A stretch of DNA of 64,000 bases from Escherichia phage CLB_P2, in the sequence record OL770107; one strand, written 5' to 3'. The notes beneath the pieces are model-generated. The model ran no database searches. It was not told the DNA's origin and saw nothing but the letters and a program-made list of their open reading frames with translations. This document shows, piece after piece, positions 1 to 39,778 of the stretch (its first letter is position 1; every line of letters starts with the position of its first letter). The translations under genes were made by a program, and so were the position numbers.

Positions 1-119
1 CTTTTAATAAACTCTTTAAGTCTTTAACTGAAGATGAACGTGATACTCTTATTGAGCAATTTAATGAAGGGTATGAAGATATACACCGTTATCTAATGAT
101 GTATACCTCCAATTTTTAA
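1..119 (+). CDS. asiA: anti-sigma70 factor AsiA, C-terminal fragment (gene starts upstream of window)
   Basis: Frame-3 ORF running off the 5' edge; tail ...LTEDERDTLIEQFNEGYEDIHRYLMMYTSNF resembles the T4 AsiA C-terminus as I recall it; convergent with holin t as in T4. Confidence 0.55.
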   Translation, partial: FNKLFKSLTEDERDTLIEQFNEGYEDIHRYLMMYTSNF

Positions 120-769
120 CGAGTTCGACCTAATGTTCTCCCAGCCTGACCACACATAGACGAAAGTCTAGGAAATCCTAAATCCGGTTTGATATCGTAC
201 CAATATAATGATATCGAGCCGGCATAGATGTTATCCAAATTAAAAAACGGGCATGAAAACATATAAGTGAAATGGGTTTTCTCCTTTGTAGGGAGAAACA
301 CAGATTCAGTAGATGATTCAAAATAGTTCCCGTTAACTCCCGCCATATACTCTACTGACGTTTTGTCAATCGGGAATCCTCCCGTATTTTTTGCGTCTAC
401 CGTTTCCGGTAATTTACCCTCATAAGCTACCATATCCACAAAATAATTCATGTTGGTTGGCCTAAAAGAATATATTGCTGTGAAGTCTGCGCCTGAAGAA
501 GAATGCACTATTCGGAGCTGCTCGATAGCCGCAATTTTAAATCTATTGTCCTGGTCTTGTCTAATCATTTCAGTATAAGAGGCATAAGTTGTCTCTTTGT
601 AAAAGTTTAGAATATGCTCGCCTTTATACCAAACCAATGCCATAAAGAACAATAATATTACGACTAGGACCCGGGAAAAAACTACTTTCCCGGAAGAAGT
701 ATCTTTAAAAATTCTATCAAGAAGTCCAAAAAGTAGGTCTGTTATCGAAAATCCTACTTTTGGTTCCAT
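116..769 (-). CDS. t: holin (T4 gp t type)
   Basis: 217-aa ORF; N-terminal hydrophobic segment VLVVILLFFMALVWY; strong resemblance to T4 holin T (218 aa) incl. FNLDNIYAG and YSFRP-N-NYFVD motifs; sits next to gene 38. Confidence 0.85.
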   Translation of the reverse strand: MEPKVGFSITDLLFGLLDRIFKDTSSGKVVFSRVLVVILLFFMALVWYKGEHILNFYKETTYASYTEMIRQDQDNRFKIAAIEQLRIVHSSSGADFTAIYSFRPTNMNYFVDMVAYEGKLPETVDAKNTGGFPIDKTSVEYMAGVNGNYFESSTESVFLPTKEKTHFTYMFSCPFFNLDNIYAGSISLYWYDIKPDLGFPRLSSMCGQAGRTLGRTR

Positions 770-787
770 ACTTTTCTCCTTTAAAGA

Positions 788-795
788 TATTTATA
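788..795 (-). promoter_or_regulatory. T4-type late promoter core (TATAAATA) upstream of holin
   Basis: Minus-strand TATAAATA about 20 nt upstream of the t start codon. Confidence 0.45.
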
Positions 796-806
796 ATACA
801 GAAGTA

Positions 807-1595
807 TTAAACTCGGCTGCCGTGAATAGTACCAACGTTTTGCCAAGAAGGAGCATTACCTGTAACGGCTGCACCAGCAGAACCACCTGCAGAAGTATAA
901 ACGTTAGAACCCCATCCTCGTCCGCCGCCAGCACCAACGTTACCGCCATTACCCGCGCCGTATTGGACCGTGGTACCACCTGTGCCTGCAGCAGTTAGGG
1001 ATGCGTTTGAACCGGACAATATGCTATCCGTCCCTATTTTCCCGCCGACGCCGAATGGTCTACCACCACCGCCACCACAGGAACCGTTAGTCGGGTAGTT
1101 ATTTTGCAATGATACTGCGCCACCACCGCCACCACCGCCAGCAATAGTACCGTTGTTCCGAATGCGTAATTTGGTTCCTGCTGAGTTACGTATCGCAACA
1201 CCACCATTTCCGCCTGCTGAACCGTTAGTTGAACCATTACCACCACGTCCATAAACAGTTACACCACTATTAATAGTAAGTTGAATATATGCATTAGGAA
1301 GGTCGCTAGGAAATTCTAAACAAGCATTACCTGTACTATTGGATACTAAATCGCCTGTTATAGTAATAACTACGGGCGCGCCACCTTGAGCTCTCATCCA
1401 GTTGATTAGACTATTTCTATCATAGTTATGGTTAGCCCCTATAGATAAGTAAATTTCTTTTGATTGGTTAGCCATCGAACCCATCCAGCCTGGAACTGCA
1501 ACACGAACATCTCGCATTGCAGCATCCATCCAACGTTGACCTGTTTCGTCAACCGCAGATTGTCCAATCCAACCAGGTAATCCTACAATCGCCAT
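807..1595 (-). CDS. 38: long tail fibre tip adhesin gp38 (T2-type, glycine-rich)
   Basis: 262-aa ORF directly downstream of gp37; N-terminus MAIVGLPGWIGQSAVDETGQRWM; several poly-Gly tracts (GGGGGGGAVS, GSCGGGGGRPFG, GAGGGRGWG) separating short variable segments, as in T2/T6-type gp38. Confidence 0.8.
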   Translation of the reverse strand: MAIVGLPGWIGQSAVDETGQRWMDAAMRDVRVAVPGWMGSMANQSKEIYLSIGANHNYDRNSLINWMRAQGGAPVVITITGDLVSNSTGNACLEFPSDLPNAYIQLTINSGVTVYGRGGNGSTNGSAGGNGGVAIRNSAGTKLRIRNNGTIAGGGGGGGAVSLQNNYPTNGSCGGGGGRPFGVGGKIGTDSILSGSNASLTAAGTGGTTVQYGAGNGGNVGAGGGRGWGSNVYTSAGGSAGAAVTGNAPSWQNVGTIHGSRV

Positions 1596-1606
1596 TATAA
1601 ATCCTT

Positions 1607-1624
1607 AGAGGGCCGAAGCCCTCT
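1607..1624 (-). promoter_or_regulatory. GC-rich hairpin in the 37-38 intergenic spacer
   Basis: Perfect inverted repeat AGAGGGC-CGAA-GCCCTCT between gp37 stop and gp38 start; no clear U-tract, so more likely an attenuator or processing structure than a strong terminator. Confidence 0.3.
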
Positions 1625-1626
1625 TA

Positions 1627-4600
1627 TTAGTTTAACTTAGCTTCAAGTTCTTTTACTTTAGCCGACAGAGTTTTAACTGCTTCAATTAATAGAGCAACTT
1701 GTGCCTGAGTAGAAACTGTCAGAACTTTATTACCTTTGATATCTTCAACTTCACGAATAGCTTCAGGTAATACTTCATTCAATTTCTGTGCAATAACACC
1801 TGCTTCAGTGTGAACAACCTCTCCACCAATATAATCAGCTTTATCATAGATTAAACCATCAAGCTGTTCAACCTTTTCAAGAGCGTTTTCAATTGGTTTG
1901 AAGTTTGATTTCAAACGAATATCAGAACGAATATAAACGTTTGGAGCATTTATATTCATATCTGAATAAGTGTCACCACCTTGGAATCGCATACGGCGAG
2001 AAGCATTAGTCCAAACTTCTAAAAGACCGTCACCAACTTGTCTAAAACCAGTATCGCTATCCCCAATTACAAGTGAGTTACCACCAAACCCGTTTATTGT
2101 GTTAATACCGAAGGCACTTGTTTGTGGTAGCAGTACTTTACCTGGACACTCTAAAGTACCGTCCATTACAAAGCGCCATCTTGCTTGTTGGCCATTAGCA
2201 TTGTCGCCACGTATACGAATAATACCATCACGCCATCCAGCTGTGGTACCAGAACCAACCCAACCAAACTCAAAGGTCTGACGATAACCTGCTGAACCAT
2301 AGTTACTCCACGCTCCGACAATAGGATAATAACTACCTGAATTGGATAAATCACCATGGTCTGCCATAAAGGTGATTTTAGGTTTCATTGCATCTGAGTT
2401 ATCACCCCAGCCTGCAGGTGAACGTGCAGAAGAAACTACACGAGAGGTAATATTACCAAGGTTTGTATTACCGCCTGTAACGTTTAATCCGCCACCAGTA
2501 ATATTCAGACCGTGGTTCATACCAACGCGACCATCAGCCATATTAATAGAGAAAGGTCTTAAGCCATTCCAATCACCATTAGCCGCATCGGGTTTTTCTG
2601 TCGTATTTTTATCTGTAGCTAAAATATAAAAACTTCCACCGTCGTTTCTAAGTAAAGCAGCATTAGAATCTAAATCATTACCTTTAGATTTAATACGCAT
2701 ACCTTTTTGGTTATTGGTAACATATTCACCACGAGTAACAATATCTGATTCACCAGCAGCAAACATTCCGTCAATATTGTTCAGCATTCTTACAGATTTA
2801 CCTACAATATGACCTTCAGGTAATGTTTCTACCAAAGGCTGGATGCCGCTATCCATACCTACTACGGTTACTTTACTATTGCTACTGCATGTATATTCTA
2901 CTACTAAAGAATTAGAATATCCACCCAAATAAACGTAAATATCATAGATATCTTCGCTTGTATTAACCGAAGCAATCTGGGAAATAGCTTCAGAAGTCCT
3001 ATTCCACAACGTAGCATTAAGGCCTTTAGGGTTATTATTACCAGTTCTAAGGATTATTTCAGCTATTGAAGCCTGACCATAACTTTTAAAATTAAATCCG
3101 GAACCACCAAATATTTTAAAAGATACCGTGCCTGTTGACTGCGGAATTTCTACAGTAGCAAATTTATACCAACCTGTAGTAGCACCACCCGACCATCCGC
3201 CCATATTAACTTTATGGTCTAATGTTGAATTCAGGTTTTTAAAGTTGTCTAAGGTAGAACTGCCTGTAATGTTACCATCTGTACCAATACGAATATCAGA
3301 ACCTATTTTAAGAGGCTTGGTTATATCAACAGTATCAGAGTTTAATGCAATACCATGTGAATAAGTATAGTTATGTAAACGAACAACGTTACCGCCGTCA
3401 CCAATACCAAGATACCATTTTGTAACGTCTGCTTTACGTCCTTGGATAAAGTTGGATGCTGCTTGAGATGAAGCATTCAAAACAATACCATCGGAATCCA
3501 TATTAACACGCAACCTACAGTCAGTTTGGACAAATTTACTTACGTTGTCGACTGTAAAAAGTGGACCACCTGTAGATTTATTCCCCATTATAACGGTACC
3601 ATTGGCTAAATTAATAGACAACGGACGGAGGTCGCTTATTCCACCATTTTCACCGGCGTTTTGAAGGGTAGGAATAAGATGGAATGAAGCAGAAGAACCC
3701 GTTTCTGAACGACGGAAAATCAAACCATATTCAGCGTTCCAAATTCTTAATGCGTCAGCAGTACCACCCATTTTAACTTGGCCACTAATTGAAGCGCCGC
3801 CTTGGACAAACAGGCCATTAGTCATGGTAACATTGCCACCAAAAGAACCGGTACCGGATGCACTTATATTTCCGAGACTAGAAAAATGACCTGTTTCAAC
3901 AGAGCCGTTGAACTTGAAGTTAATAGGGCCTACAGTTTCACCGGAAGCCGGATTAGTACGTTGGCCATAGAAATAATATCCTTGTGAATCTGATACTTCG
4001 AATACAGTTTCTCTATTACCGCCACCGGCGTTAAATGAGTTACCCCATGCTTTCATGGTAACGGTATTTTTGTTCTGGCCATTTCGGGTACCAGCGTCCC
4101 AGTTAATGGTTTTTGTACCATCAACACCGGTAGGAGCAGTTAATGCCAATGCAGAAGTATTATTGTTTGCGTTAAGAACTAGGCCGTTATTAACCATTAA
4201 ACGCTGTGTAGTAGAAACTGTGCCGTCTGCTCTAAGATTTAATTCGTTAACCCCGGTCTTAATATTTAAAATACCAGGTTCAATAATCATACCTTCTGCC
4301 ATAGAAATGGCTACACGACCTGTGCCACGGAAATAATGATAAAGTTTACCATTAGAATTATAACCCAAATGGGTTTGGCCATCCCCGGAGTTATTACCAT
4401 CTATTTCGGTTCTAATAGAAACCATAGAAGAATTCTGGCCCGGCAGAAGCCAAGTAAGCCCCTGGTCATTACTACGTCCAAATATGGTTTTGCTTGTACC
4501 GCGGAAACCATCAGTAGTAATAGAAGCAACAGAATAACCTCCACCCACCAAATCAAAATTACCTTGTTTAATATATTTTAAACCGGTCGCGGTATCACCT

Positions 4601-5493
4601 AAAACTAGGTATTTGTCACCCATAGCTCCGGTATTACCATAATCGCTAGATGGGAAATCGGTAGTCATAGTACCTAATGCAAGGCTATTTCTACCAATCA
4701 AACGGCCGTCGTTACGAACACCGTATTGTTTAGACTGAGGAGTATTACCTGTCCACCAAGACATTTCATCAGCTTGGCCTAATTGAGCAGTACAAAGCTC
4801 ATGCCACATAGTGCCGCCAGATTTGGCACGAACTTTACGAAGATAGTTTACACCATTTGTTTCGCCGGTGCCCGGGTATACGTAATTAACTAAAGATTGG
4901 CTGTCATACTGTCCAAACGTTTTTGAATCATGGTTTACTAAGTTAACGGAAATTGTAGGTGTTGATATTGAAGTTAAAGCCGCTAATTTACGAGCCTGAA
5001 AAATACCACCATCATTAGAAATAAAGTGAAACTCTGAATTTTGCGCGCCGGCAGCAGTACCTTGGCGAACACGCATGGTAATTACGCCTTCATTTTCAAG
5101 CTGTGGTTTAGCATATAAAACACCACGTTCAGTGCCATTTGCGTTTTCAAACCAATAATGTGCGTTAGAAGTATCATTAGACGCTCTAGAATAAAATGAG
5201 CCCTTACTAGCTCGGAAAACAGGGGCAGTAATACTACCTTCAGTTCTCATACCTGCCGTACCTGTTTGGACAAGTTCACCATTTAAATTCAAAGTCCCGT
5301 TAATATTAACATCACCATCAACTTGTCCACCTTTAGCAAAGCCCAAATCAATAATCTGTCCTTGGTCTGACTTAGTAAAAATAGTGCGGTCACGCAAGTT
5401 AATAGCCAGTTCACCTTCATCTAACTGGGCTGCAGTAGGCTTGGCTCCTGCTATTTTACTTCTTTTAAATTGTATCGATTTTAAAGTAGCCAT
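1627..5493 (-). CDS. 37: long tail fibre distal subunit gp37
   Basis: 1288-aa ORF after gp36; conserved N-terminus MATLKSIQFKRSKIAGAKP...; position and size fit gp37. Confidence 0.85.
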   Translation of the reverse strand: MATLKSIQFKRSKIAGAKPTAAQLDEGELAINLRDRTIFTKSDQGQIIDLGFAKGGQVDGDVNINGTLNLNGELVQTGTAGMRTEGSITAPVFRASKGSFYSRASNDTSNAHYWFENANGTERGVLYAKPQLENEGVITMRVRQGTAAGAQNSEFHFISNDGGIFQARKLAALTSISTPTISVNLVNHDSKTFGQYDSQSLVNYVYPGTGETNGVNYLRKVRAKSGGTMWHELCTAQLGQADEMSWWTGNTPQSKQYGVRNDGRLIGRNSLALGTMTTDFPSSDYGNTGAMGDKYLVLGDTATGLKYIKQGNFDLVGGGYSVASITTDGFRGTSKTIFGRSNDQGLTWLLPGQNSSMVSIRTEIDGNNSGDGQTHLGYNSNGKLYHYFRGTGRVAISMAEGMIIEPGILNIKTGVNELNLRADGTVSTTQRLMVNNGLVLNANNNTSALALTAPTGVDGTKTINWDAGTRNGQNKNTVTMKAWGNSFNAGGGNRETVFEVSDSQGYYFYGQRTNPASGETVGPINFKFNGSVETGHFSSLGNISASGTGSFGGNVTMTNGLFVQGGASISGQVKMGGTADALRIWNAEYGLIFRRSETGSSASFHLIPTLQNAGENGGISDLRPLSINLANGTVIMGNKSTGGPLFTVDNVSKFVQTDCRLRVNMDSDGIVLNASSQAASNFIQGRKADVTKWYLGIGDGGNVVRLHNYTYSHGIALNSDTVDITKPLKIGSDIRIGTDGNITGSSTLDNFKNLNSTLDHKVNMGGWSGGATTGWYKFATVEIPQSTGTVSFKIFGGSGFNFKSYGQASIAEIILRTGNNNPKGLNATLWNRTSEAISQIASVNTSEDIYDIYVYLGGYSNSLVVEYTCSSNSKVTVVGMDSGIQPLVETLPEGHIVGKSVRMLNNIDGMFAAGESDIVTRGEYVTNNQKGMRIKSKGNDLDSNAALLRNDGGSFYILATDKNTTEKPDAANGDWNGLRPFSINMADGRVGMNHGLNITGGGLNVTGGNTNLGNITSRVVSSARSPAGWGDNSDAMKPKITFMADHGDLSNSGSYYPIVGAWSNYGSAGYRQTFEFGWVGSGTTAGWRDGIIRIRGDNANGQQARWRFVMDGTLECPGKVLLPQTSAFGINTINGFGGNSLVIGDSDTGFRQVGDGLLEVWTNASRRMRFQGGDTYSDMNINAPNVYIRSDIRLKSNFKPIENALEKVEQLDGLIYDKADYIGGEVVHTEAGVIAQKLNEVLPEAIREVEDIKGNKVLTVSTQAQVALLIEAVKTLSAKVKELEAKLN

Positions 5494-5501
5494 AATGCCT
5501 C

Positions 5502-6161
5502 TTAATAATATCCAAAATCTTCAGACGTACCTCTAAGAACAACCTGGTCAATACGAGGAACATGTTCGTTCAATGTACCTGGATTCCTAGATATGAAATT
5601 CGGGGCTGAAAGAACACCAGCCATAGATTGTATGTTACTATTATTTATTTGGACCTGTTTTGCGTTATCTACATCACTTAATCCAACCTGGGCTTTAGTA
5701 GGGGTGTTACCAGGTGAAAATACTCGACCGGATTCATCTTTAATCTGACGGCCAAGAATATCGCCCATTACGGTAAGACGGTTAGCTCCTACTGTAGTGC
5801 TAGGGTCAAAGATTACAAATGGCGTCCCATCTGCTGTTTCAAGTCCCATACCTTTACTCATTCTAAATGAGAAAGAATACGTAGTCGACATTGGAGTAGT
5901 ATTGGTTTTTCTACCTAATTTAACCCAATAACCATCCGAATCTTTAAATTGTAGGTCTTTATCAAAGTTTACAGTACCCAAATAATTCCCACCGTTGGCT
6001 TTAGAAACAAAGTCGTTATCTGCGGCTTGGGGCTTATTAAATTCGGTATAGATTTTGTAGGTTTTATATAAAATATCATTTGATACCGGCGTCAGCGGAA
6101 AGTTACCTTGGTGCCATATAACGGAACCTCCAGCGGTTGAGCCTAATTTTAAATCAGCCAT
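5502..6161 (-). CDS. 36: long tail fibre distal connector gp36
   Basis: 219-aa ORF between gp35 and gp37 (T4 gp36 about 221 aa); N-terminus MADLKLGSTAGGSV. Confidence 0.8.
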   Translation of the reverse strand: MADLKLGSTAGGSVIWHQGNFPLTPVSNDILYKTYKIYTEFNKPQAADNDFVSKANGGNYLGTVNFDKDLQFKDSDGYWVKLGRKTNTTPMSTTYSFSFRMSKGMGLETADGTPFVIFDPSTTVGANRLTVMGDILGRQIKDESGRVFSPGNTPTKAQVGLSDVDNAKQVQINNSNIQSMAGVLSAPNFISRNPGTLNEHVPRIDQVVLRGTSEDFGYY

Positions 6162-6186: not shown

Positions 6187-6194
6187 TATTTATA
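6187..6194 (-). promoter_or_regulatory. late promoter core TATAAATA for gene 36
   Basis: Minus-strand GCTATAAATACG about 25 nt upstream of the gp36 start. Confidence 0.5.
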
Positions 6195-6218
6195 GCAAAA
6201 AGGGACCTCACGGTCCCT
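6195..6218 (-). terminator. hairpin terminator after gene 35
   Basis: Minus strand AAGGGACC-GTGA-GGTCCCTT followed by TTTTTG, overlapping the gp35 stop codon. Confidence 0.5.
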
Positions 6219-7342
6219 TAATATTTTTCTTTAAATTCTTGAACAAATACTTTACCTGCATTACCGGATGATTTATCATTCAACTGTGCAATAACATTAT
6301 CCATTGAACGGGTTTCTGTACCAAAGTTCATACGAATACCGTTAACACCAATTTCGGCGGATTTAGGAGTATCTTCAGGTCTAGCTATTTCACCAAACAC
6401 AACATTTCTAACACCACCTTGACCGTCTAGGACAGTTTTTCTGGCATATAAGGTAAATCCATTAGCATTTAATGGAACTTCTACTACACGCTCAAAGGAC
6501 ATCCATGCGCCTGCCGGTGGGGAGCCAGCTCCTACAGGAATATTGATATCAGTGGATTGAAGCATTTCTTGCCCATTAAAAAATCGTATGGACATCTGGG
6601 TCGTCCCTAAATCTTTTAAAGCCTGGTCATAGGTCATTTGGAATTTAAGATAAAAGAAATCTCCTGGAACCATATTATAATCTGCACAAGGAGTTATAGT
6701 GGCTTCAGTAGGAAACCTTTTAATTTCTTGGGTAGCTCCACTATAATAAGTATTTTCATCTTCGACAATTCTAACCGGGAATCCTGTCCCACCTACGTCA
6801 TTAAAATTATCATAAACTACTTCTAACGGAGTTGAAACATCTTCAACTAAAACACCGTCGTTATAAAGAACGTGCTCCATTACAATGGCATTTCTTCCTG
6901 AAACGTAAAAAGCTGAATAAGAAGTATCCACTTTATCAATGAGCCATTTATCTGGAAAGGCCGCAGACCCTGCAGCTCTAAACCAATCAATTAACACTTG
7001 CGAGGCGTTTAATTTGCCGGAAGAAATAAAGCAAACAATTCTACCGGCAGGTATAGAAGAAATATAAGTTATAAACGCTTGGGAAATAACATCATGGTCT
7101 TTGGTAAAGGCGTATGATTTTGTAGCCACTATTGTGTTATTTGTCGGGTCTATTTCAACCAAATTTAGCCCGGATTGGAAATTCTGAGGACCAAAGTCCT
7201 CATCTTGAAATTTAATATAAGCCTTTTTAGTAGACTTAGTACAGCTCCCTGCTATACTAAGTTTATAACTAACGGCATTATTTTCAGATAGTACAGGAAT
7301 TTGAACGTAATCTTGTCCAAATTCAGCCATAAATCTTTCCAT
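6218..7342 (-). CDS. 35: long tail fibre hinge connector gp35
   Basis: 374-aa ORF (T4 gp35 372 aa) between gp34 and gp36. Confidence 0.8.
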   Translation of the reverse strand: MERFMAEFGQDYVQIPVLSENNAVSYKLSIAGSCTKSTKKAYIKFQDEDFGPQNFQSGLNLVEIDPTNNTIVATKSYAFTKDHDVISQAFITYISSIPAGRIVCFISSGKLNASQVLIDWFRAAGSAAFPDKWLIDKVDTSYSAFYVSGRNAIVMEHVLYNDGVLVEDVSTPLEVVYDNFNDVGGTGFPVRIVEDENTYYSGATQEIKRFPTEATITPCADYNMVPGDFFYLKFQMTYDQALKDLGTTQMSIRFFNGQEMLQSTDINIPVGAGSPPAGAWMSFERVVEVPLNANGFTLYARKTVLDGQGGVRNVVFGEIARPEDTPKSAEIGVNGIRMNFGTETRSMDNVIAQLNDKSSGNAGKVFVQEFKEKY

Positions 7343-7350
7343 ATTACCTC

Positions 7351-10300
7351 TTATGGTGTATCAATCCATTCGAATTTAACAGAACGAGTTACCGGGTCCG
7401 GAATTATACGAACGTTACCAATACGCAACCAATCACGAATGGTCAAGTTACTCATTGAAGCATTATCAGAAGGTAATGCACCGATATCAGACGGTTGAGG
7501 TGGATTACCGCCATCAAATACCTGAACAAATCCAGACCAAGCATTTTTATTTTGCTGCCAAGTACGAGTCCAACGAGTAGTGCTTCCGTCTGCAGTATTT
7601 GGATAGGTAATCCAATCCTGGTAAAGTGAATTCAGAGTGTTACCGAACTGAGTTAACGTACCAGGCGATTTAACTTCTTCACCACGAACCAAATACGGCA
7701 ACCCTGTTACTTCGTTAATTTTTTCAACCATTTTAAAATAACCAGGGAATTGGTTATATGTGGCTTCGTCATTAACGTCAACAGACCAAAAGCCGGTATT
7801 GTCTGCATTAGGTTTTCTGGAATAAAGGTCGGCAGGTTTAGTACCTTGAGAACGAATTCTCGAGTTAACCGTTAAACCACCTGAGTTAATAGTTGCGCCT
7901 TTGGCAATAATAAGACCTTCGCCAATTGTAACCTGGCCAGATGTATTACTAATAGCTAATGGTCTTAATCCATTAAAGCCACCTGTTTGATCGCCTGAGT
8001 CGGTCAGCATAAAATAGACATTAGAGTTATCATTACGAATAAAGAATCCATAATTACCACTAATTGCTCTAAATGCGTTCGAACTATAAGATATAAATTC
8101 GCCCTGAGCTGTAACCGAACGACCGAATGTTGCAACGCCATTCACATTCATTAACCCGGAAGCATTCACATTTATCGGCATTACAGTACCATTAATGCTA
8201 AACGCTATATTACCATCTTTATTGCGTTGGGAATAAAAATGGTTAGACGTTTCATCACCGACTTCAAACACGGTAGAACGACTCGTATCCGAACCACCGC
8301 CATACTGGTTACCCCATACACGGATGCTCATTGACTGAACCGGGTTAGTTCCTGTTTGAGGGCCCTTTTCAAATACTATACGAGTAGCCGTTCCCGTGTT
8401 ACGGATAGTAAATGTACTATTAGCAGCTAAAGAACCACCAAATTCACCGGTACCGCCTGTAGCCAACTGGCCATCCACTCTGATGTTTTTACGAAGGGTT
8501 AATGTTCCTTCAACTATTTGGTCGATATCTCTCCTGACGAACTGAGAGCTATCCAGGTTGTCCAATTTATCAGAGTCAAAAGCCTTACCTTTAATCGGAA
8601 GATAGTGAGTTAACGCCGTATTCAATTGAAGAGGGGAAATAGCAAAGCCGTTGTCTTCAAATTTGGCCAGGTTAGCAACAGAACCATTAGTATCGTCACC
8701 TTCCCAAGTGGCTGTACCTGTAGTTAATTTAACATATCCTCTACGAGCAGAAGTAGCTTCCCAGGATTTTTCCTGTTGGACGATATATTTGTAATGCTTA
8801 GGACTAAACGCTTTATTACTTACCGTACCATCAATAACTTCGGCCTGAGTAGCAAGCTGGATAATACCTTCGGCATTTTCGGTAGCCTTTTTAGCTTGAA
8901 GCTTAAGCGGAGTAATGATTGTTTTATCATCGGTTCCGGTATTAACTTCAGTTTGGGTAGCCAAACGGGCCGTACCACGTTGGGTATTACTTGCTTCACG
9001 GATATCTAGTGTATAATGGTTCCATAAGGTTCCTGATTCAACCAAACCACTGGCTACTGAGACAGAAGTTCTAGCAGTATTATCAAATCTTGTTTTAATT
9101 TTCAACGGAGTTGAAATAACATTATCTAATACACCTGCATCAAATTCTACTTGAGTACCAATACGAGCAATACCAGTTAAAGTCTCTGTAGCCTTCCTAT
9201 CATTTAACGTCTTAGGCGTTACCGCACGAGTATAATCAGTTCCAGCATCAGTTTCCTGTTGCGTAGCAATTTCAATTAAACCATGATTGGTATCAGTAGA
9301 ACGACGAGCACCTAATGTTTCAGGTGTGACAACCGAGTTACTAAAACCAGGGTTAGTAGCACCAGCATTAACTTCGGCTTGCGTAGCAAGATATACAGCA
9401 CCTTGGTTATTTTGGTCGGCTTTATACTGGTCCAAAGCTTTAGGAGAAATAACTAAAGTAGTAGTGTTCTTATTATAAACGTTGGTACCTACAGTTGCTC
9501 TGGAGTCCGCAGGAGTGGTTCCTGTGGTAGATACATATTTTACTATACCAGATAGGCTTTCGGTTCCCTGGCGCGTCTGTAGCTTCTTAGGAGTGATAAT
9601 GGTTGTATCATCAACACCTGCATCAGTTTCCTGTTGCGTAGCAATTTCAGCTACACCACGACGAGTTTCGGTAGCAGTACGTTCGTTTAATTTCTTAGGA
9701 GAAATAATCAAATCGTCCTGGAAAGCGAAAGTTGTATTCTGGTTTACCTGAGCAGTTGTAGCAATACGAGCAATACCACGACGTGATTCGGTGGCAACAC
9801 GATTAGCTAAAGTCTGTGGAGTAATTGCAAGTTCTTTTTCAGGATTATTTTCATGGTCGACGTTTGCCTGGGTCTGAGATGCAAGGGCAATAACACCGAG
9901 ACGAGCACGAGTTAAATCATCCTTAGAATCCACACGTTCTACAGTAGGAACGTTCTGAGCAACCACCCAGTAGTTAACGTTAATATCTGTATCTTCAAGA
10001 TAACTTAATTCGATAACCGGAGTATAACTTAAGTTACCATTAAAGGTCAATACGTCATTCAGAACCCATTCAGTATCCGGTGGATATTCCGAACGTTTAG
10101 GGAACTGGAGCAATTGAACCGAAGAAGCAATTTTATCACCTACAGCAGCCTTAATATTTACTGTCTGGGCTTTACGAAGGTAGTTCAATGCGATTTTAAT
10201 AGTATCGCCTTGCGCTACGTTAGTAGGTAAAGTGATATTAATAGTTTGTGGAGTTGTGTTATTAGGACCAAAAACAATAACACTTTCATTAGCCAAGAGC

Positions 10301-11250
10301 TCAACATCGTCACGAATTACACGTAAACGAGTTTGACGGTCTCCGTCCCAAACATACCACATTTTTTCAACAGAGTTATAAACAAAGAACCCATCACCTG
10401 AGGTACGGAATTCCATGCTGTGTTGCCCGGGCTTACCTAATGAAGACGACGCATCAAACGTTTCAACTACTAAATGGAACTTACTTCCAAGACCATCGAT
10501 ATCAACGGTTTTAACCATATCACCTTGGTTTGCATACTTAGGAAGAGTAAATTTAATTACTGCACCTGAAGTATAACGACGTAAAACGTTATCACCTGCT
10601 TGTGATTGGAACTGTGCAGTGTTAGGCTCTACACGAATACCGCGTTCTTCGTTACCTGCTTCCCAGAAATGCCAAAGACGGTTAGCAAAGATAAGCATGT
10701 TATAAGAAAAAGGTTTGGTTATCAGAGTTTCAGAGAACTGGTTACCAAATCGAACAATTTTCTGATTACCACCGCCTGGAGCAGAACTAGATTGAACCTT
10801 GATTTCATTATAACCTACACGCCCACCAATGTCCTTGATTACAATGGTATCACCATCAGTAGGGTTAGGAGGCAGAGTAAATGTAGTAAAGCTAGCAGCA
10901 GAATCCACTGCGATATATTCACCAGAAGCCAGCTGGCGTGTAGGAGATGCTACTGTAATCCATTTAGGGTCAGTACGGGTAGCGGTCCAATAACCGGGTA
11001 CAAAAGTTCCGGCCGGGGCATCGATGTCACGTTGAGCAACCCAAATACGTTGGTCATGGATTACGGCAAACCCTTTCTTATATCCGCGCGTCTCGTCGTA
11101 CGCCTGGATGGTGTTCTCATCTATAAAGAATTCAACGTTGACGCCATCATCTAGTACATTGTAATCGGCTTTGGCAACATTGATAACTTTCTCGCCCGCA
11201 GCATCGAGTCCGGATGTAGCACGGAATGCAGGTTTTAAAATATCAGCCAT
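7351..11250 (-). CDS. 34: long tail fibre proximal subunit gp34
   Basis: 1299-aa ORF (T4 gp34 1289 aa), first gene of the 34-35-36-37-38 block, divergent from rnh. Confidence 0.85.
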   Translation of the reverse strand: MADILKPAFRATSGLDAAGEKVINVAKADYNVLDDGVNVEFFIDENTIQAYDETRGYKKGFAVIHDQRIWVAQRDIDAPAGTFVPGYWTATRTDPKWITVASPTRQLASGEYIAVDSAASFTTFTLPPNPTDGDTIVIKDIGGRVGYNEIKVQSSSAPGGGNQKIVRFGNQFSETLITKPFSYNMLIFANRLWHFWEAGNEERGIRVEPNTAQFQSQAGDNVLRRYTSGAVIKFTLPKYANQGDMVKTVDIDGLGSKFHLVVETFDASSSLGKPGQHSMEFRTSGDGFFVYNSVEKMWYVWDGDRQTRLRVIRDDVELLANESVIVFGPNNTTPQTINITLPTNVAQGDTIKIALNYLRKAQTVNIKAAVGDKIASSVQLLQFPKRSEYPPDTEWVLNDVLTFNGNLSYTPVIELSYLEDTDINVNYWVVAQNVPTVERVDSKDDLTRARLGVIALASQTQANVDHENNPEKELAITPQTLANRVATESRRGIARIATTAQVNQNTTFAFQDDLIISPKKLNERTATETRRGVAEIATQQETDAGVDDTTIITPKKLQTRQGTESLSGIVKYVSTTGTTPADSRATVGTNVYNKNTTTLVISPKALDQYKADQNNQGAVYLATQAEVNAGATNPGFSNSVVTPETLGARRSTDTNHGLIEIATQQETDAGTDYTRAVTPKTLNDRKATETLTGIARIGTQVEFDAGVLDNVISTPLKIKTRFDNTARTSVSVASGLVESGTLWNHYTLDIREASNTQRGTARLATQTEVNTGTDDKTIITPLKLQAKKATENAEGIIQLATQAEVIDGTVSNKAFSPKHYKYIVQQEKSWEATSARRGYVKLTTGTATWEGDDTNGSVANLAKFEDNGFAISPLQLNTALTHYLPIKGKAFDSDKLDNLDSSQFVRRDIDQIVEGTLTLRKNIRVDGQLATGGTGEFGGSLAANSTFTIRNTGTATRIVFEKGPQTGTNPVQSMSIRVWGNQYGGGSDTSRSTVFEVGDETSNHFYSQRNKDGNIAFSINGTVMPINVNASGLMNVNGVATFGRSVTAQGEFISYSSNAFRAISGNYGFFIRNDNSNVYFMLTDSGDQTGGFNGLRPLAISNTSGQVTIGEGLIIAKGATINSGGLTVNSRIRSQGTKPADLYSRKPNADNTGFWSVDVNDEATYNQFPGYFKMVEKINEVTGLPYLVRGEEVKSPGTLTQFGNTLNSLYQDWITYPNTADGSTTRWTRTWQQNKNAWSGFVQVFDGGNPPQPSDIGALPSDNASMSNLTIRDWLRIGNVRIIPDPVTRSVKFEWIDTP

Positions 11251-11282: not shown

Positions 11283-11290
11283 TATTTATA
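11283..11290 (-). promoter_or_regulatory. late promoter core TATAAATA for gene 34
   Basis: Minus-strand CTATAAATAG about 33 nt upstream of the gp34 start. Confidence 0.5.
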
Positions 11291-37654: not shown

Positions 37655-39778
37655 ATGGAAAATTTAAACGAAGTTTTTGATAGTGATTCCGCTAAAAACT
37701 ATCCAGTAACAAATCTTAAGCCAGGCTCAGGTATCCCACAGATTTTCTCTATCCAAGCACCAGGTAATGATAACCTGGTTGCTCGTATGGTATCTTATGC
37801 GTCTCAAGGAGACGCTATTAAAATGGTTAAGCCTGGCGACAAATATGTCCACGTTATTCTAATGAGTTTGTCAAGCAAGGGTGCTCCGGCTGAACTCAAA
37901 GGTGGGCTTGGTTCCGACCCGCTTGGTGCATTGAATACTATTTTCGATACGATATATGAACAAGTAAACAAACTTAAAATGGATGCAGTTTTGTTCCGTT
38001 TCCCTACCAAGAAAATGAAAGGTAAGGGTCCTACTGTTCAGCGGGTATTAGCTCGTTTGGTGATGGCACGTACCGGTGGTAAGTTTAAAGTTGTTGATAA
38101 CATGTTCCAATTCAGTGGAAAACATACCTATGTTCTTTTAGTACGTCGCGGCACTAATATCGAAGATATCAAGGGTATGCCTGAAATTGATGCTGACCTT
38201 TATACCAAGGTTGAGTCTAAAGTTGGTGAAGTTTATGTTTCTAAGAAAACTGGCCGGGCCGTAAGTAAGGTCGAAGCCGTGGCGGCATCTATTGCACAGG
38301 TTGAAGAGAAACGTACCGATAAGGCTGTTATCTCTCGTACTAAGATTTCTCGTCGTATGGCTGCAGCAGCACAGTATTCTACTGCCGAACCTGAAACTTT
38401 ATCCCCTAAAGAATTGCAGGTTTATAATGAGTTTGAAGCTTCTGTACCTGTTCATTCGGCTGAAGGTCCTGAGAACGAAGGTATTGAACAAATTAGCCAG
38501 AACTTTAAAAAAGGTGCTATTACTAAAATGCGTCAGGCCTCTCAGTTTAAATCTAAGAGTGAGGACCTTGCCAACTTTAGATACACCATTGCTCTCACAC
38601 ACGCTTTAATGACTGATAGTAAATTTAAACTAAATTATGCTAATAGAGATAAACAAGGGTTTGAAATTTACTCTAATAATATGGCATTTTTTAATACGGA
38701 AGTCGATAGACTTTTAAGCGGCCTTTCTCAAATCAATACTACCAATAGTCTGGATATTATTAAGAGAATTGTTAATAACCTGAGTGCCCGTTTTCAGGGG
38801 TCTCCTTCAGAGAAAGCATCCCGAATTGCTTTCGCTATGGAAGCCGTTTATAAACTGATTAACGATTCTATTAGCGATGCATATGCTTATTCAGGCGAGC
38901 TCATTAAACCTAAGGGCTTGACCAAAGACGAAAGTAATGCCATTATTGAATATTGTGCGGCTGAATATGCTCCTATGAACTTATTCCTTTTAGGTAAACC
39001 TGAATCCGAAAACAATACAACAGCTATTAAATTGATTAAGGATTTAGACTCAGCATTTACCAAGGGTATTAAACTTCCTAAAGGTACTATTTTGTATCGT
39101 GGTCAGGATTTACCATACAAAATTCTGCGCCATAATATTGATAACAAAACCTTTTACTTTAAGAACTTTGTATCCGCTTCATTAAAGCCTAATATCTTTG
39201 GTGAATTTGGTAAAAATTATATGGCCCTCGACAACCAAGCAGTTTTTGTTGGTGATGAAGGTTCTTTATCCTCCGCCGATGAGTTGTTTAAATTGGCCAG
39301 TGGTAGTTCATCTGACGTAGGTGAAGTTGATGATGAAGAGGTAGAATGGGAAGAAGACGAGTTTGGTAATCCAATTGCACCTGAAGGCCCTGCAGACAGG
39401 ATTGCTGAAATTGGTATGGTTATTCGAGGTGCTGAAGCAGTTAAAGTTATCGCTCCTGGTGACCTTACAGAATATGCCGAAGAAGCGGAAATTATCCTTC
39501 CGCGCGGATTATTGTTGAAGGTTGATAAAGTAGCAGCTTTTGCTATGAATGATAGGGTATCTCACAAATACCTTATGGAAGCTACAGTGACATCTCCTTC
39601 AGAACTCAGTGAGTCCGTTTACGATGGTGACCATCTGATGGAAACCGGCGAAGTTAAATTGATGAATGGGTTTAAAGAATTCCTAGTTTCAGAATCTGTT
39701 TCAGAAAGTAACGAGGCTATGGAAATCCTTGCTGCATCTTTGGACATCTCTTCTTTACCAAATAAATTCAAAATGTAG
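37655..39778 (+). CDS. Alt-like ADP-ribosyltransferase (paralog 2)
   Basis: 707 aa; same N-terminal module and C-terminal YRGQ / SAS / EAEIILPRG motifs; unrelated central 250 aa and acidic insert DDEEVEWEEDEFG. Confidence 0.75.
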   Translation: MENLNEVFDSDSAKNYPVTNLKPGSGIPQIFSIQAPGNDNLVARMVSYASQGDAIKMVKPGDKYVHVILMSLSSKGAPAELKGGLGSDPLGALNTIFDTIYEQVNKLKMDAVLFRFPTKKMKGKGPTVQRVLARLVMARTGGKFKVVDNMFQFSGKHTYVLLVRRGTNIEDIKGMPEIDADLYTKVESKVGEVYVSKKTGRAVSKVEAVAASIAQVEEKRTDKAVISRTKISRRMAAAAQYSTAEPETLSPKELQVYNEFEASVPVHSAEGPENEGIEQISQNFKKGAITKMRQASQFKSKSEDLANFRYTIALTHALMTDSKFKLNYANRDKQGFEIYSNNMAFFNTEVDRLLSGLSQINTTNSLDIIKRIVNNLSARFQGSPSEKASRIAFAMEAVYKLINDSISDAYAYSGELIKPKGLTKDESNAIIEYCAAEYAPMNLFLLGKPESENNTTAIKLIKDLDSAFTKGIKLPKGTILYRGQDLPYKILRHNIDNKTFYFKNFVSASLKPNIFGEFGKNYMALDNQAVFVGDEGSLSSADELFKLASGSSSDVGEVDDEEVEWEEDEFGNPIAPEGPADRIAEIGMVIRGAEAVKVIAPGDLTEYAEEAEIILPRGLLLKVDKVAAFAMNDRVSHKYLMEATVTSPSELSESVYDGDHLMETGEVKLMNGFKEFLVSESVSESNEAMEILAASLDISSLPNKFKM

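Follow-up and report, generated by a model that had tools for sequence, protein, structure and literature searches.

Does the long tail fibre of Escherichia phage CLB_P2 end in a separate adhesin, as that of T2 does, or in the tip of gp37 itself, as that of T4 does? The question is raised by the interval 807–5493 of the DNA analysed here, a stretch of 64,000 nucleotides from this phage (sequence record OL770107; below, the window), which is filled by two adjoining minus-strand open reading frames (ORFs) that the ORF listing translates into a protein of 262 aa, gp38, and one of 1288 aa, gp37 (Table 1). An earlier note on this DNA, which had given exactly these outer limits and protein lengths, had taken the product of the smaller frame for a T2-type adhesin rather than a T4-type chaperone. 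We conclude that the long tail fibre of CLB_P2, a Dhakavirus, very probably owes its distal half to gene 37 and its receptor-binding tip to gene 38; nothing contradicts the assignment of gp38 as an adhesin, which by homology would be expected to sit at the tip of the fibre in virions and to bind a receptor.

Residues 47–262 of gp38 match the full model of the Pfam family GP38 (PF05268) with E = 2.6e-78 (263.2 bits, cut-off 25), because of which gene 38 cannot be regarded as a chance ORF, and residues 1–42 match Gp38_N (PF21721; E = 4.3e-16, 59.1 bits, cut-off 25). A sequence search of the PDB aligned the protein with two adhesins at E-values of about 1e-43, namely the solved adhesin of phage S16 (6F45_D; residues 8–260, E = 7e-44) and the receptor-binding domain of PP01 gp38 (9V85; residues 40–262, E = 9e-44). 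With T2 gp38 (BBC14865.1) it aligns from end to end and without a gap, both proteins being 262 aa long and identical at 237 positions (90.5%), and its closest non-identical relative is the gp38 of phage dhaeg (96%). In contrast, the gp38 of T4 (NP_049864), an unrelated chaperone of 183 aa, gave no BLASTP alignment with it even at E ≤ 100; alignment with the T4 chaperone in place of the adhesins is what the earlier note had named as refuting its reading, and the claim of an adhesin stands. All 16 gp38 proteins aligned, the S16-like one included, have the tryptophans W9, W22 and W37. In the S16 complex, the gp37 trimer has pockets that receive three conserved tryptophans from the attachment domain (PMC6851490).

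The alignment comprised gp38 and 15 further proteins, which fall into a T2-type group (T2, SV76, dhaeg, IME08, VR20, fDHCT2, IME341 and AnYang) and a set of diverse gp38 types (NR1, JS98, T6, FL20, HY01, LHE83 and STML-198); column entropies were computed on eight diverse gp38 sequences. Glycine accounts for 22.9% of gp38 overall, with 32% in residues 117–262 as against 11% in residues 1–116, and occurs in one run of seven (153–159), one run of five (174–178), one run of three and eight GG pairs. Together with the entropies and invariant columns, these runs delimit five glycine-rich motifs (GRM1–5), near-invariant across the 16 proteins, that alternate with four hypervariable segments (HVS1–4; Table 1), a scheme that was defined by Trojet et al. 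(PMC3157838) and has been used since (PMC12032242; bioRxiv 10.64898/2026.04.02.716166). The comparison with T2- and T6-type adhesins that the earlier note had proposed thus yields the limits of all four segments. Its description of glycine tracts that separate short variable segments is borne out as regards the layout and the entropies, whereas the segments are neither all short nor uniformly variable: HVS1 is truly variable only at residues 122–130 and conserved at 131–152, and HVS3 spans 33 aa, among them several glycines that are invariant.

That the loops between the glycine tracts set host range, as had also been proposed, is established for the gp38 family (PMC3157838, PMC6851490, PMC12032242, bioRxiv 10.64898/2026.04.02.716166), and the layout concerned is present here. 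In S16 gp38 the glycine-rich motifs form polyglycine-II helices, and the distal loops of the hypervariable segments are the proposed binding site (PMC6851490). The helix of eight glycines in S16 (151–158) aligns with the seven-glycine run of CLB_P2, and homology to 6F45 and 9V85 suggests that gp38 would adopt the same polyglycine-II sandwich fold.

The partner of this adhesin, gp37, is a mosaic. It is 90.5% identical to the gp37 of IME08 and 62% identical to that of T2, while its BLASTP alignment with T4 gp37 (53% identity) ends at about residue 811. Residues 1–750 are mostly 86–100% identical to IME08 per 50-aa window, with approximately 80% across 451–550, and reach 51% identity with T2; a Pfam gp37_trimer match lies at the end of this region (669–750). 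The following residues, 751–1189, are 77% identical to residues 803–1242 of T2 gp37 and contain a Pfam Gp34_trimer-like module (912–983), and neither BLASTP nor sliding identity found a T4 counterpart for them. The remainder begins with a Peptidase_S74 domain (PF13884; residues 1190–1246, E = 3.5e-14, 53.3 bits, cut-off 22), which T2 gp37 also possesses, at residues 1243–1300. In the PDB, gp37 matched nothing but 6F45_A, the tip of S16 gp37 together with its chaperone, which aligns from residue 1135 onwards; the structure of the T4 gp37 tip was not among the matches of this search.

The sole S-D-x-R-x-K motif of gp37, NVYIR^SDIRLK at residues 1185–1195, aligns with the autocleavage site of S16, DLNVS^SDRRIKK, the position of which has been reported (PMC7917993). 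Because of this alignment we predict that gp37 is cut at R1189^S1190, which would give a mature protein of 1189 aa and release a chaperone of 99 aa. The T4-type Collar (PF07484) and fibre-repeat (PF03335) families, both of which match T4 gp37, gave no Pfam match in gp37 of CLB_P2. Thus, T4 gp37 ends in a receptor-binding tip made of these two domains and has no S74 chaperone, and gp37 of CLB_P2 exhibits the reverse.

With 1288 aa, gp37 is 262 aa longer than T4 gp37 (1026 aa), in agreement with the difference of about 260 aa given in the earlier note, the implication of which, that such a length is out of the ordinary, does not survive comparison. T2 gp37 (1341 aa) is longer by a further 53 aa, the partners of T2-type gp38 in dhaeg, IME08, VR20, fDHCT2, IME341 and AnYang measure 1289–1324 aa, and the CLB_P2 protein is the shortest of the nine partners compared (1288–1341 aa), so that an unusually long gp37 has to be rejected. 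Moreover, about 99 aa of its length belong to the predicted cleaved chaperone. The extra length over T4 reflects the exchange of a T4 binding tip of approximately 177 aa for approximately 477 aa of T2-type distal shaft, docking tip and chaperone.

These features suggest how the tip may be assembled. The 1288-aa precursor of gp37 would trimerise with the aid of its own C-terminal intramolecular chaperone (residues 1190–1288), which would then cleave itself off at R1189^S1190 and expose a flat trimeric tip. A single copy of gp38 would dock onto this tip via residues 1–46, with W9, W22 and W37 as prongs, giving the 3:1 stoichiometry that homology predicts. From the β-helix body of gp38, projecting polyglycine-II helices (GRM1–5) would form a rigid sandwich, and the HVS1–4 loops between the helices would touch an outer-membrane protein of E. 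coli and thereby determine host range.

The gp38 of Salmonella phage S16 (PDB 6F45) is homologous over its full length, including the three tryptophans and the polyglycine helices, and the tip and the chaperone cleavage motif of S16 gp37 align with those of gp37 (PMC6851490, PMC7917993). S16 differs in the sequences of its hypervariable segments and in its host; the gp38 of the S16-like phage STML-198 is approximately 47% identical, and the partner gp37 is much shorter, with approximately 749 aa in STML-198. PP01 gp38 (9V85), a binder of OmpC, shares the framework of glycine-rich motifs (PMC12892980), but its hypervariable segments and its class of receptor are distinct. T2 shares the GRM/HVS layout of gp38 and, at approximately 77%, the distal part of gp37 with its S74 chaperone, whereas its backbone belongs to another genus. 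T4, finally, has the same gene order and a homologous proximal part of gp37 (approximately 810 aa, 53%).

The resemblance to T2 is by far the greatest at the end of the fibre: gp38 (90.5%) and distal gp37 (77%) are far closer to T2 than the proximal part of gp37 (51%) and the neighbouring holin (55%) and gp36 (47%), and the other Dhakaviruses JS98 and LHE83 carry different types of gp38 (47–48% identity). The adhesin and the docking end of gp37 thus behave as an exchangeable cassette, and exchange at the gp37/gp38 locus is known behaviour (PMC3157838). The last 140 residues of gp37 (approximately 1150–1288; window 1630–2050) are 98.6% identical to dhaeg, whereas the remaining gp37 is approximately 56% identical to dhaeg and approximately 90% identical to IME08. 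Near residue 1150 of gp37 there is thus a likely recombination junction, where a dhaeg-like cassette of tip, chaperone and gp38 would have been joined to an IME08-like shaft.

Two other divisions of labour between gp37 and gp38 have to be weighed against the tip adhesin. Were gp38 an assembly chaperone of the T4 type, it would remain outside the virion and gp37 itself would carry the receptor-binding tip; a common gene name and the same place between gene 37 and t are all that speaks for such an arrangement, which is refuted by the missing alignment with T4 gp38 together with Pfam and PDB matches to adhesins only. The structure of gp37 argues in the same direction, as it lacks the Collar and Phage_fiber tip domains of T4, has no PDB match to the T4 gp37 tip and terminates in a predicted cleavable S74 chaperone, and we regard a T4-type chaperone as next to impossible. 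It is also conceivable, if improbable, that residues 751–1189 of gp37 make a receptor or lipopolysaccharide (LPS) contact of their own, such that host range would be set by gp37 and gp38 jointly. This region co-travels with T2-type gp38 across genera (77% identity to T2, with flanking genes at 47–55%), although the co-inheritance would be explained equally well if gp37 and gp38 have to fit each other where they dock. Similarly, k-mers that predict porin use have been reported in Gp37 as well as Gp38, yet the gp37 k-mers that were located lie in the D10/D11 C-terminal domains of OmpC-targeting phages (bioRxiv 10.64898/2026.04.02.716166). In addition, gp38 caps the fibre end in the S16 structure (PMC6851490), and Pfam and PDB searches found no binding domain in gp37 751–1189, both of which speak against a contact made by gp37.

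Which receptor this tip would recognise is less certain. T2 uses FadL and OmpF (PMC3157838; PMC12529663), and because gp38 is 90.5% identical to T2 gp38, FadL and/or OmpF are the likeliest, albeit uncertain, receptors of CLB_P2. Several observations weigh against this assignment. As many as 13 of the 25 differences between the two proteins fall within HVS1–4, which makes the receptor call weak. Position 161 is valine in CLB_P2, alanine in T2 and threonine in SV76, the gp38 of which differs from that of T2 in our alignment only by A161T and G207D (the latter position lying in HVS3 and being glycine in CLB_P2 as well) and which is reported to use a set of receptors other than that of T2 (PMC3157838, PMC12529663). 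A single change in HVS3 moves RB68 from OmpF to OmpW (bioRxiv 10.64898/2026.04.02.716166). Moreover, a literature search turned up no experiment on the receptors of CLB_P2, of dhabil or of any Dhakavirus that carries a T2-type gp38.

V161, G125, Q164, V210 and A236 recur in each of the seven T2-type gp38 proteins that come from Dhakavirus, Gaprivervirus and fDHCT2, a phage without classification, and in these proteins D202 of T2 is also replaced, by alanine or, in IME08, by glycine; T2 and SV76 differ from these seven non-Tequatrovirus proteins at the fixed residues of the hypervariable segments. A tentative alternative is that the Dhakavirus/Gaprivervirus substitutions (G125, V161, Q164, V210, A236 and the loss of D202) shifted receptor preference away from the FadL and OmpF of T2, the new target being OmpF alone, OmpF together with FhuA and LPS (the set reported for SV76) or a different porin. 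We consider this possible but unlikely. The fixation of these residues in all seven members would fit such a shift, as would the link between a different receptor set and the two T2/SV76 differences, of which 161 is one (PMC3157838), and the switching of porins by single changes in the hypervariable segments (bioRxiv 10.64898/2026.04.02.716166); against it, overall identity to T2 within these segments is still high, and receptors are generally common to closely related gp38 proteins (PMC12032242). Gene 38 is 80.6% identical to that of T2 at the nucleotide level, with 105 synonymous and 25 non-synonymous codon differences, and the ratio of the non-synonymous to the synonymous substitution rate (dN/dS) is approximately 0.07 (dN = 0.07, dS approximately 1.06), so that strong purifying selection has acted on gp38 throughout a long period of divergence, which suggests a conserved function and likewise speaks against a shift. 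We note that gp38 retains D190, the residue changed in an adsorption-escape mutant of T2 (PMC12529663), beside a unique S189T, both within HVS3.

While FadL and/or OmpF thus remain the preferred assignment, there is a modest chance that the T2-type gp38 of Dhakavirus and Gaprivervirus constitutes a distinct subtype with a porin preference other than the FadL/OmpF of T2. If so, the pair of 90%-identical proteins would be a natural experiment for the loop residues that choose between FadL and OmpF. CLB_P2 is a member of the Guelin collection and has been used in phage-therapy and gut studies (PMC11495123); for this work, a T2-type adhesin predicts dependence on FadL/OmpF and likely routes to resistance, and the coordinates of the hypervariable segments could guide the engineering of receptor swaps.

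Beyond correct annotation the result has little significance, since work on the gp38 family goes back to the 1980s, has covered both its layout of glycine-rich and hypervariable parts and the way it acts on host range, and now includes crystal structures. The finding is also already known, the exact sequence being present in GenBank with correct product names. The record of Dhakavirus CLB_P2, OZ035781.1, is 100% identical over 807–5493 and over window positions 39001–64000 and is without annotation. Phage dhabil (MN850621.1) differs by 2 nt in 807–5493, both in gene 37, has an identical gp38 protein and is annotated (dhabil_39 and dhabil_40) with a 'long tail fiber adhesin' for gene 38 and a 'long tail fiber distal subunit' for gene 37. 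Neither record differs in substance from the genes 37 and 38 described here.

Table 1. Coordinates and properties of the long-tail-fibre genes of CLB_P2 and of the parts of gp38 and gp37 (GRM, glycine-rich motif; HVS, hypervariable segment).
Feature	Window position	Strand	Residues or length	Mean entropy (bits)	Differences from T2 gp38	Basis or remark
Holin gene t	116–769					Pfam Phage_holin_T, E = 4e-66
Gene 38, T2-type long-tail-fibre tip adhesin	807–1595	-	262 aa			ORF, Pfam, PDB, T2 identity, dhabil annotation
gp38 attachment domain	1458–1595	-	1–46		6, 12, 16, 29, 31, 33, 39, 43 (8 positions)	predicted to dock on gp37 trimer tip; Gp38_N 1–42, W9/W22/W37
gp38 central β-helix body, first part	1251–1457	-	47–115		107	homology to 6F45 (PMC6851490); moderately conserved
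gp38 specificity domain	858–1250	-	116–246			five GRMs and four HVSs; entropy and invariant columns, glycine runs
GRM1			116–121	0.18		
HVS1	1140–1232	-	122–152	1.82 at 122–130; 0.67 at 131–152	125, 133, 136, 138, 150	
GRM2			153–159	0.16		
HVS2	1077–1118	-	160–173	2.11	161, 164, 166	highest entropy
GRM3			174–180	0.00		
HVS3	957–1055	-	181–213	1.41	189, 202, 210	
GRM4			214–225	0.88		
HVS4	888–920	-	226–236	1.76	230, 236	
GRM5			237–246	0.81	239	
gp38 conserved C-terminal end	810–857	-	247–262	0.88	250, 258	P249, W251, G255, I257, G259 invariant
UUCG-loop hairpin	1607–1624	-				in 31-nt spacer between genes 37 and 38; 7-bp stem
Gene 37, long-tail-fibre distal subunit	1627–5493	-	1288-aa precursor			ORF, homologues, dhabil annotation
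gp37 intramolecular chaperone, predicted cleaved	1630–1926	-	1190–1288			Peptidase_S74, S-D-x-R-x-K motif
gp37 T2-type distal shaft	1927–3243	-	751–1189			ends in gp38-docking tip (approximately 1135–1189)
gp37 proximal shaft, T4/IME08-like	3244–5493	-	1–750			sliding identity, BLASTP, gp37_trimer
Gene 36	5502–6161					ORF listing
Gene 35	6218–7342	-	374 aa			longest ORF
Gene 34	7351–11250		1299 aa			ORF listing

The block 34-35-36-37-38-t follows the canonical order of T-even long-tail-fibre genes, and gene 38 has, as in T2 and the other T2-type loci compared, gene 37 on one side and the holin gene on the other. Plus-strand and out-of-frame ORFs within genes 37 and 38 lie inside strongly conserved coding sequence and are without support. 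Scans for tRNA genes and for Rfam families (at the gathering threshold) gave no hit across the whole window (1–64000).

A pattern search found the T4-type late promoter motif TATAAATA on the minus strand at 788–795 (before t), 6187–6194 (before gene 36) and 11283–11290 (before gene 34), with 13 matches in the window where 6.45 would be expected by chance; the same search gave no minus-strand match upstream of gene 37 or 38. As the motif is present before gene 36 and absent before genes 37 and 38, these three genes probably form a single late transcript, for which the motif at 6187–6194 (-) would be the probable promoter. The spacer between genes 37 and 38 contains a hairpin, AGAGGGC-UUCG-GCCCUCU (-13.4 kcal/mol), the stem of which is maintained by compensatory exchanges of both pairing bases in T2, T4, IME08, JS98, HY01 and STML-198, and phage NR1 bears a terminator annotation at the corresponding place. 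C(UUCG)G hairpins are well known from the intercistronic regions of T4, and for this reason the spacer hairpin is probably an element of mRNA stability or attenuation and not new.

Further upstream, the start of gp35, the connector at the fibre hinge, shows a minor ambiguity, as the longest ORF from the first ATG encodes 374 aa compared with 370 aa (1113 nt) in dhabil. Residues 57–128 of gp35 match the Pfam family ILEI (PF15711; 34.9 bits, cut-off 27), and since T4 gp35 gives the same match at 35.9 bits, the match is common to gp35 proteins in general and not peculiar to CLB_P2.

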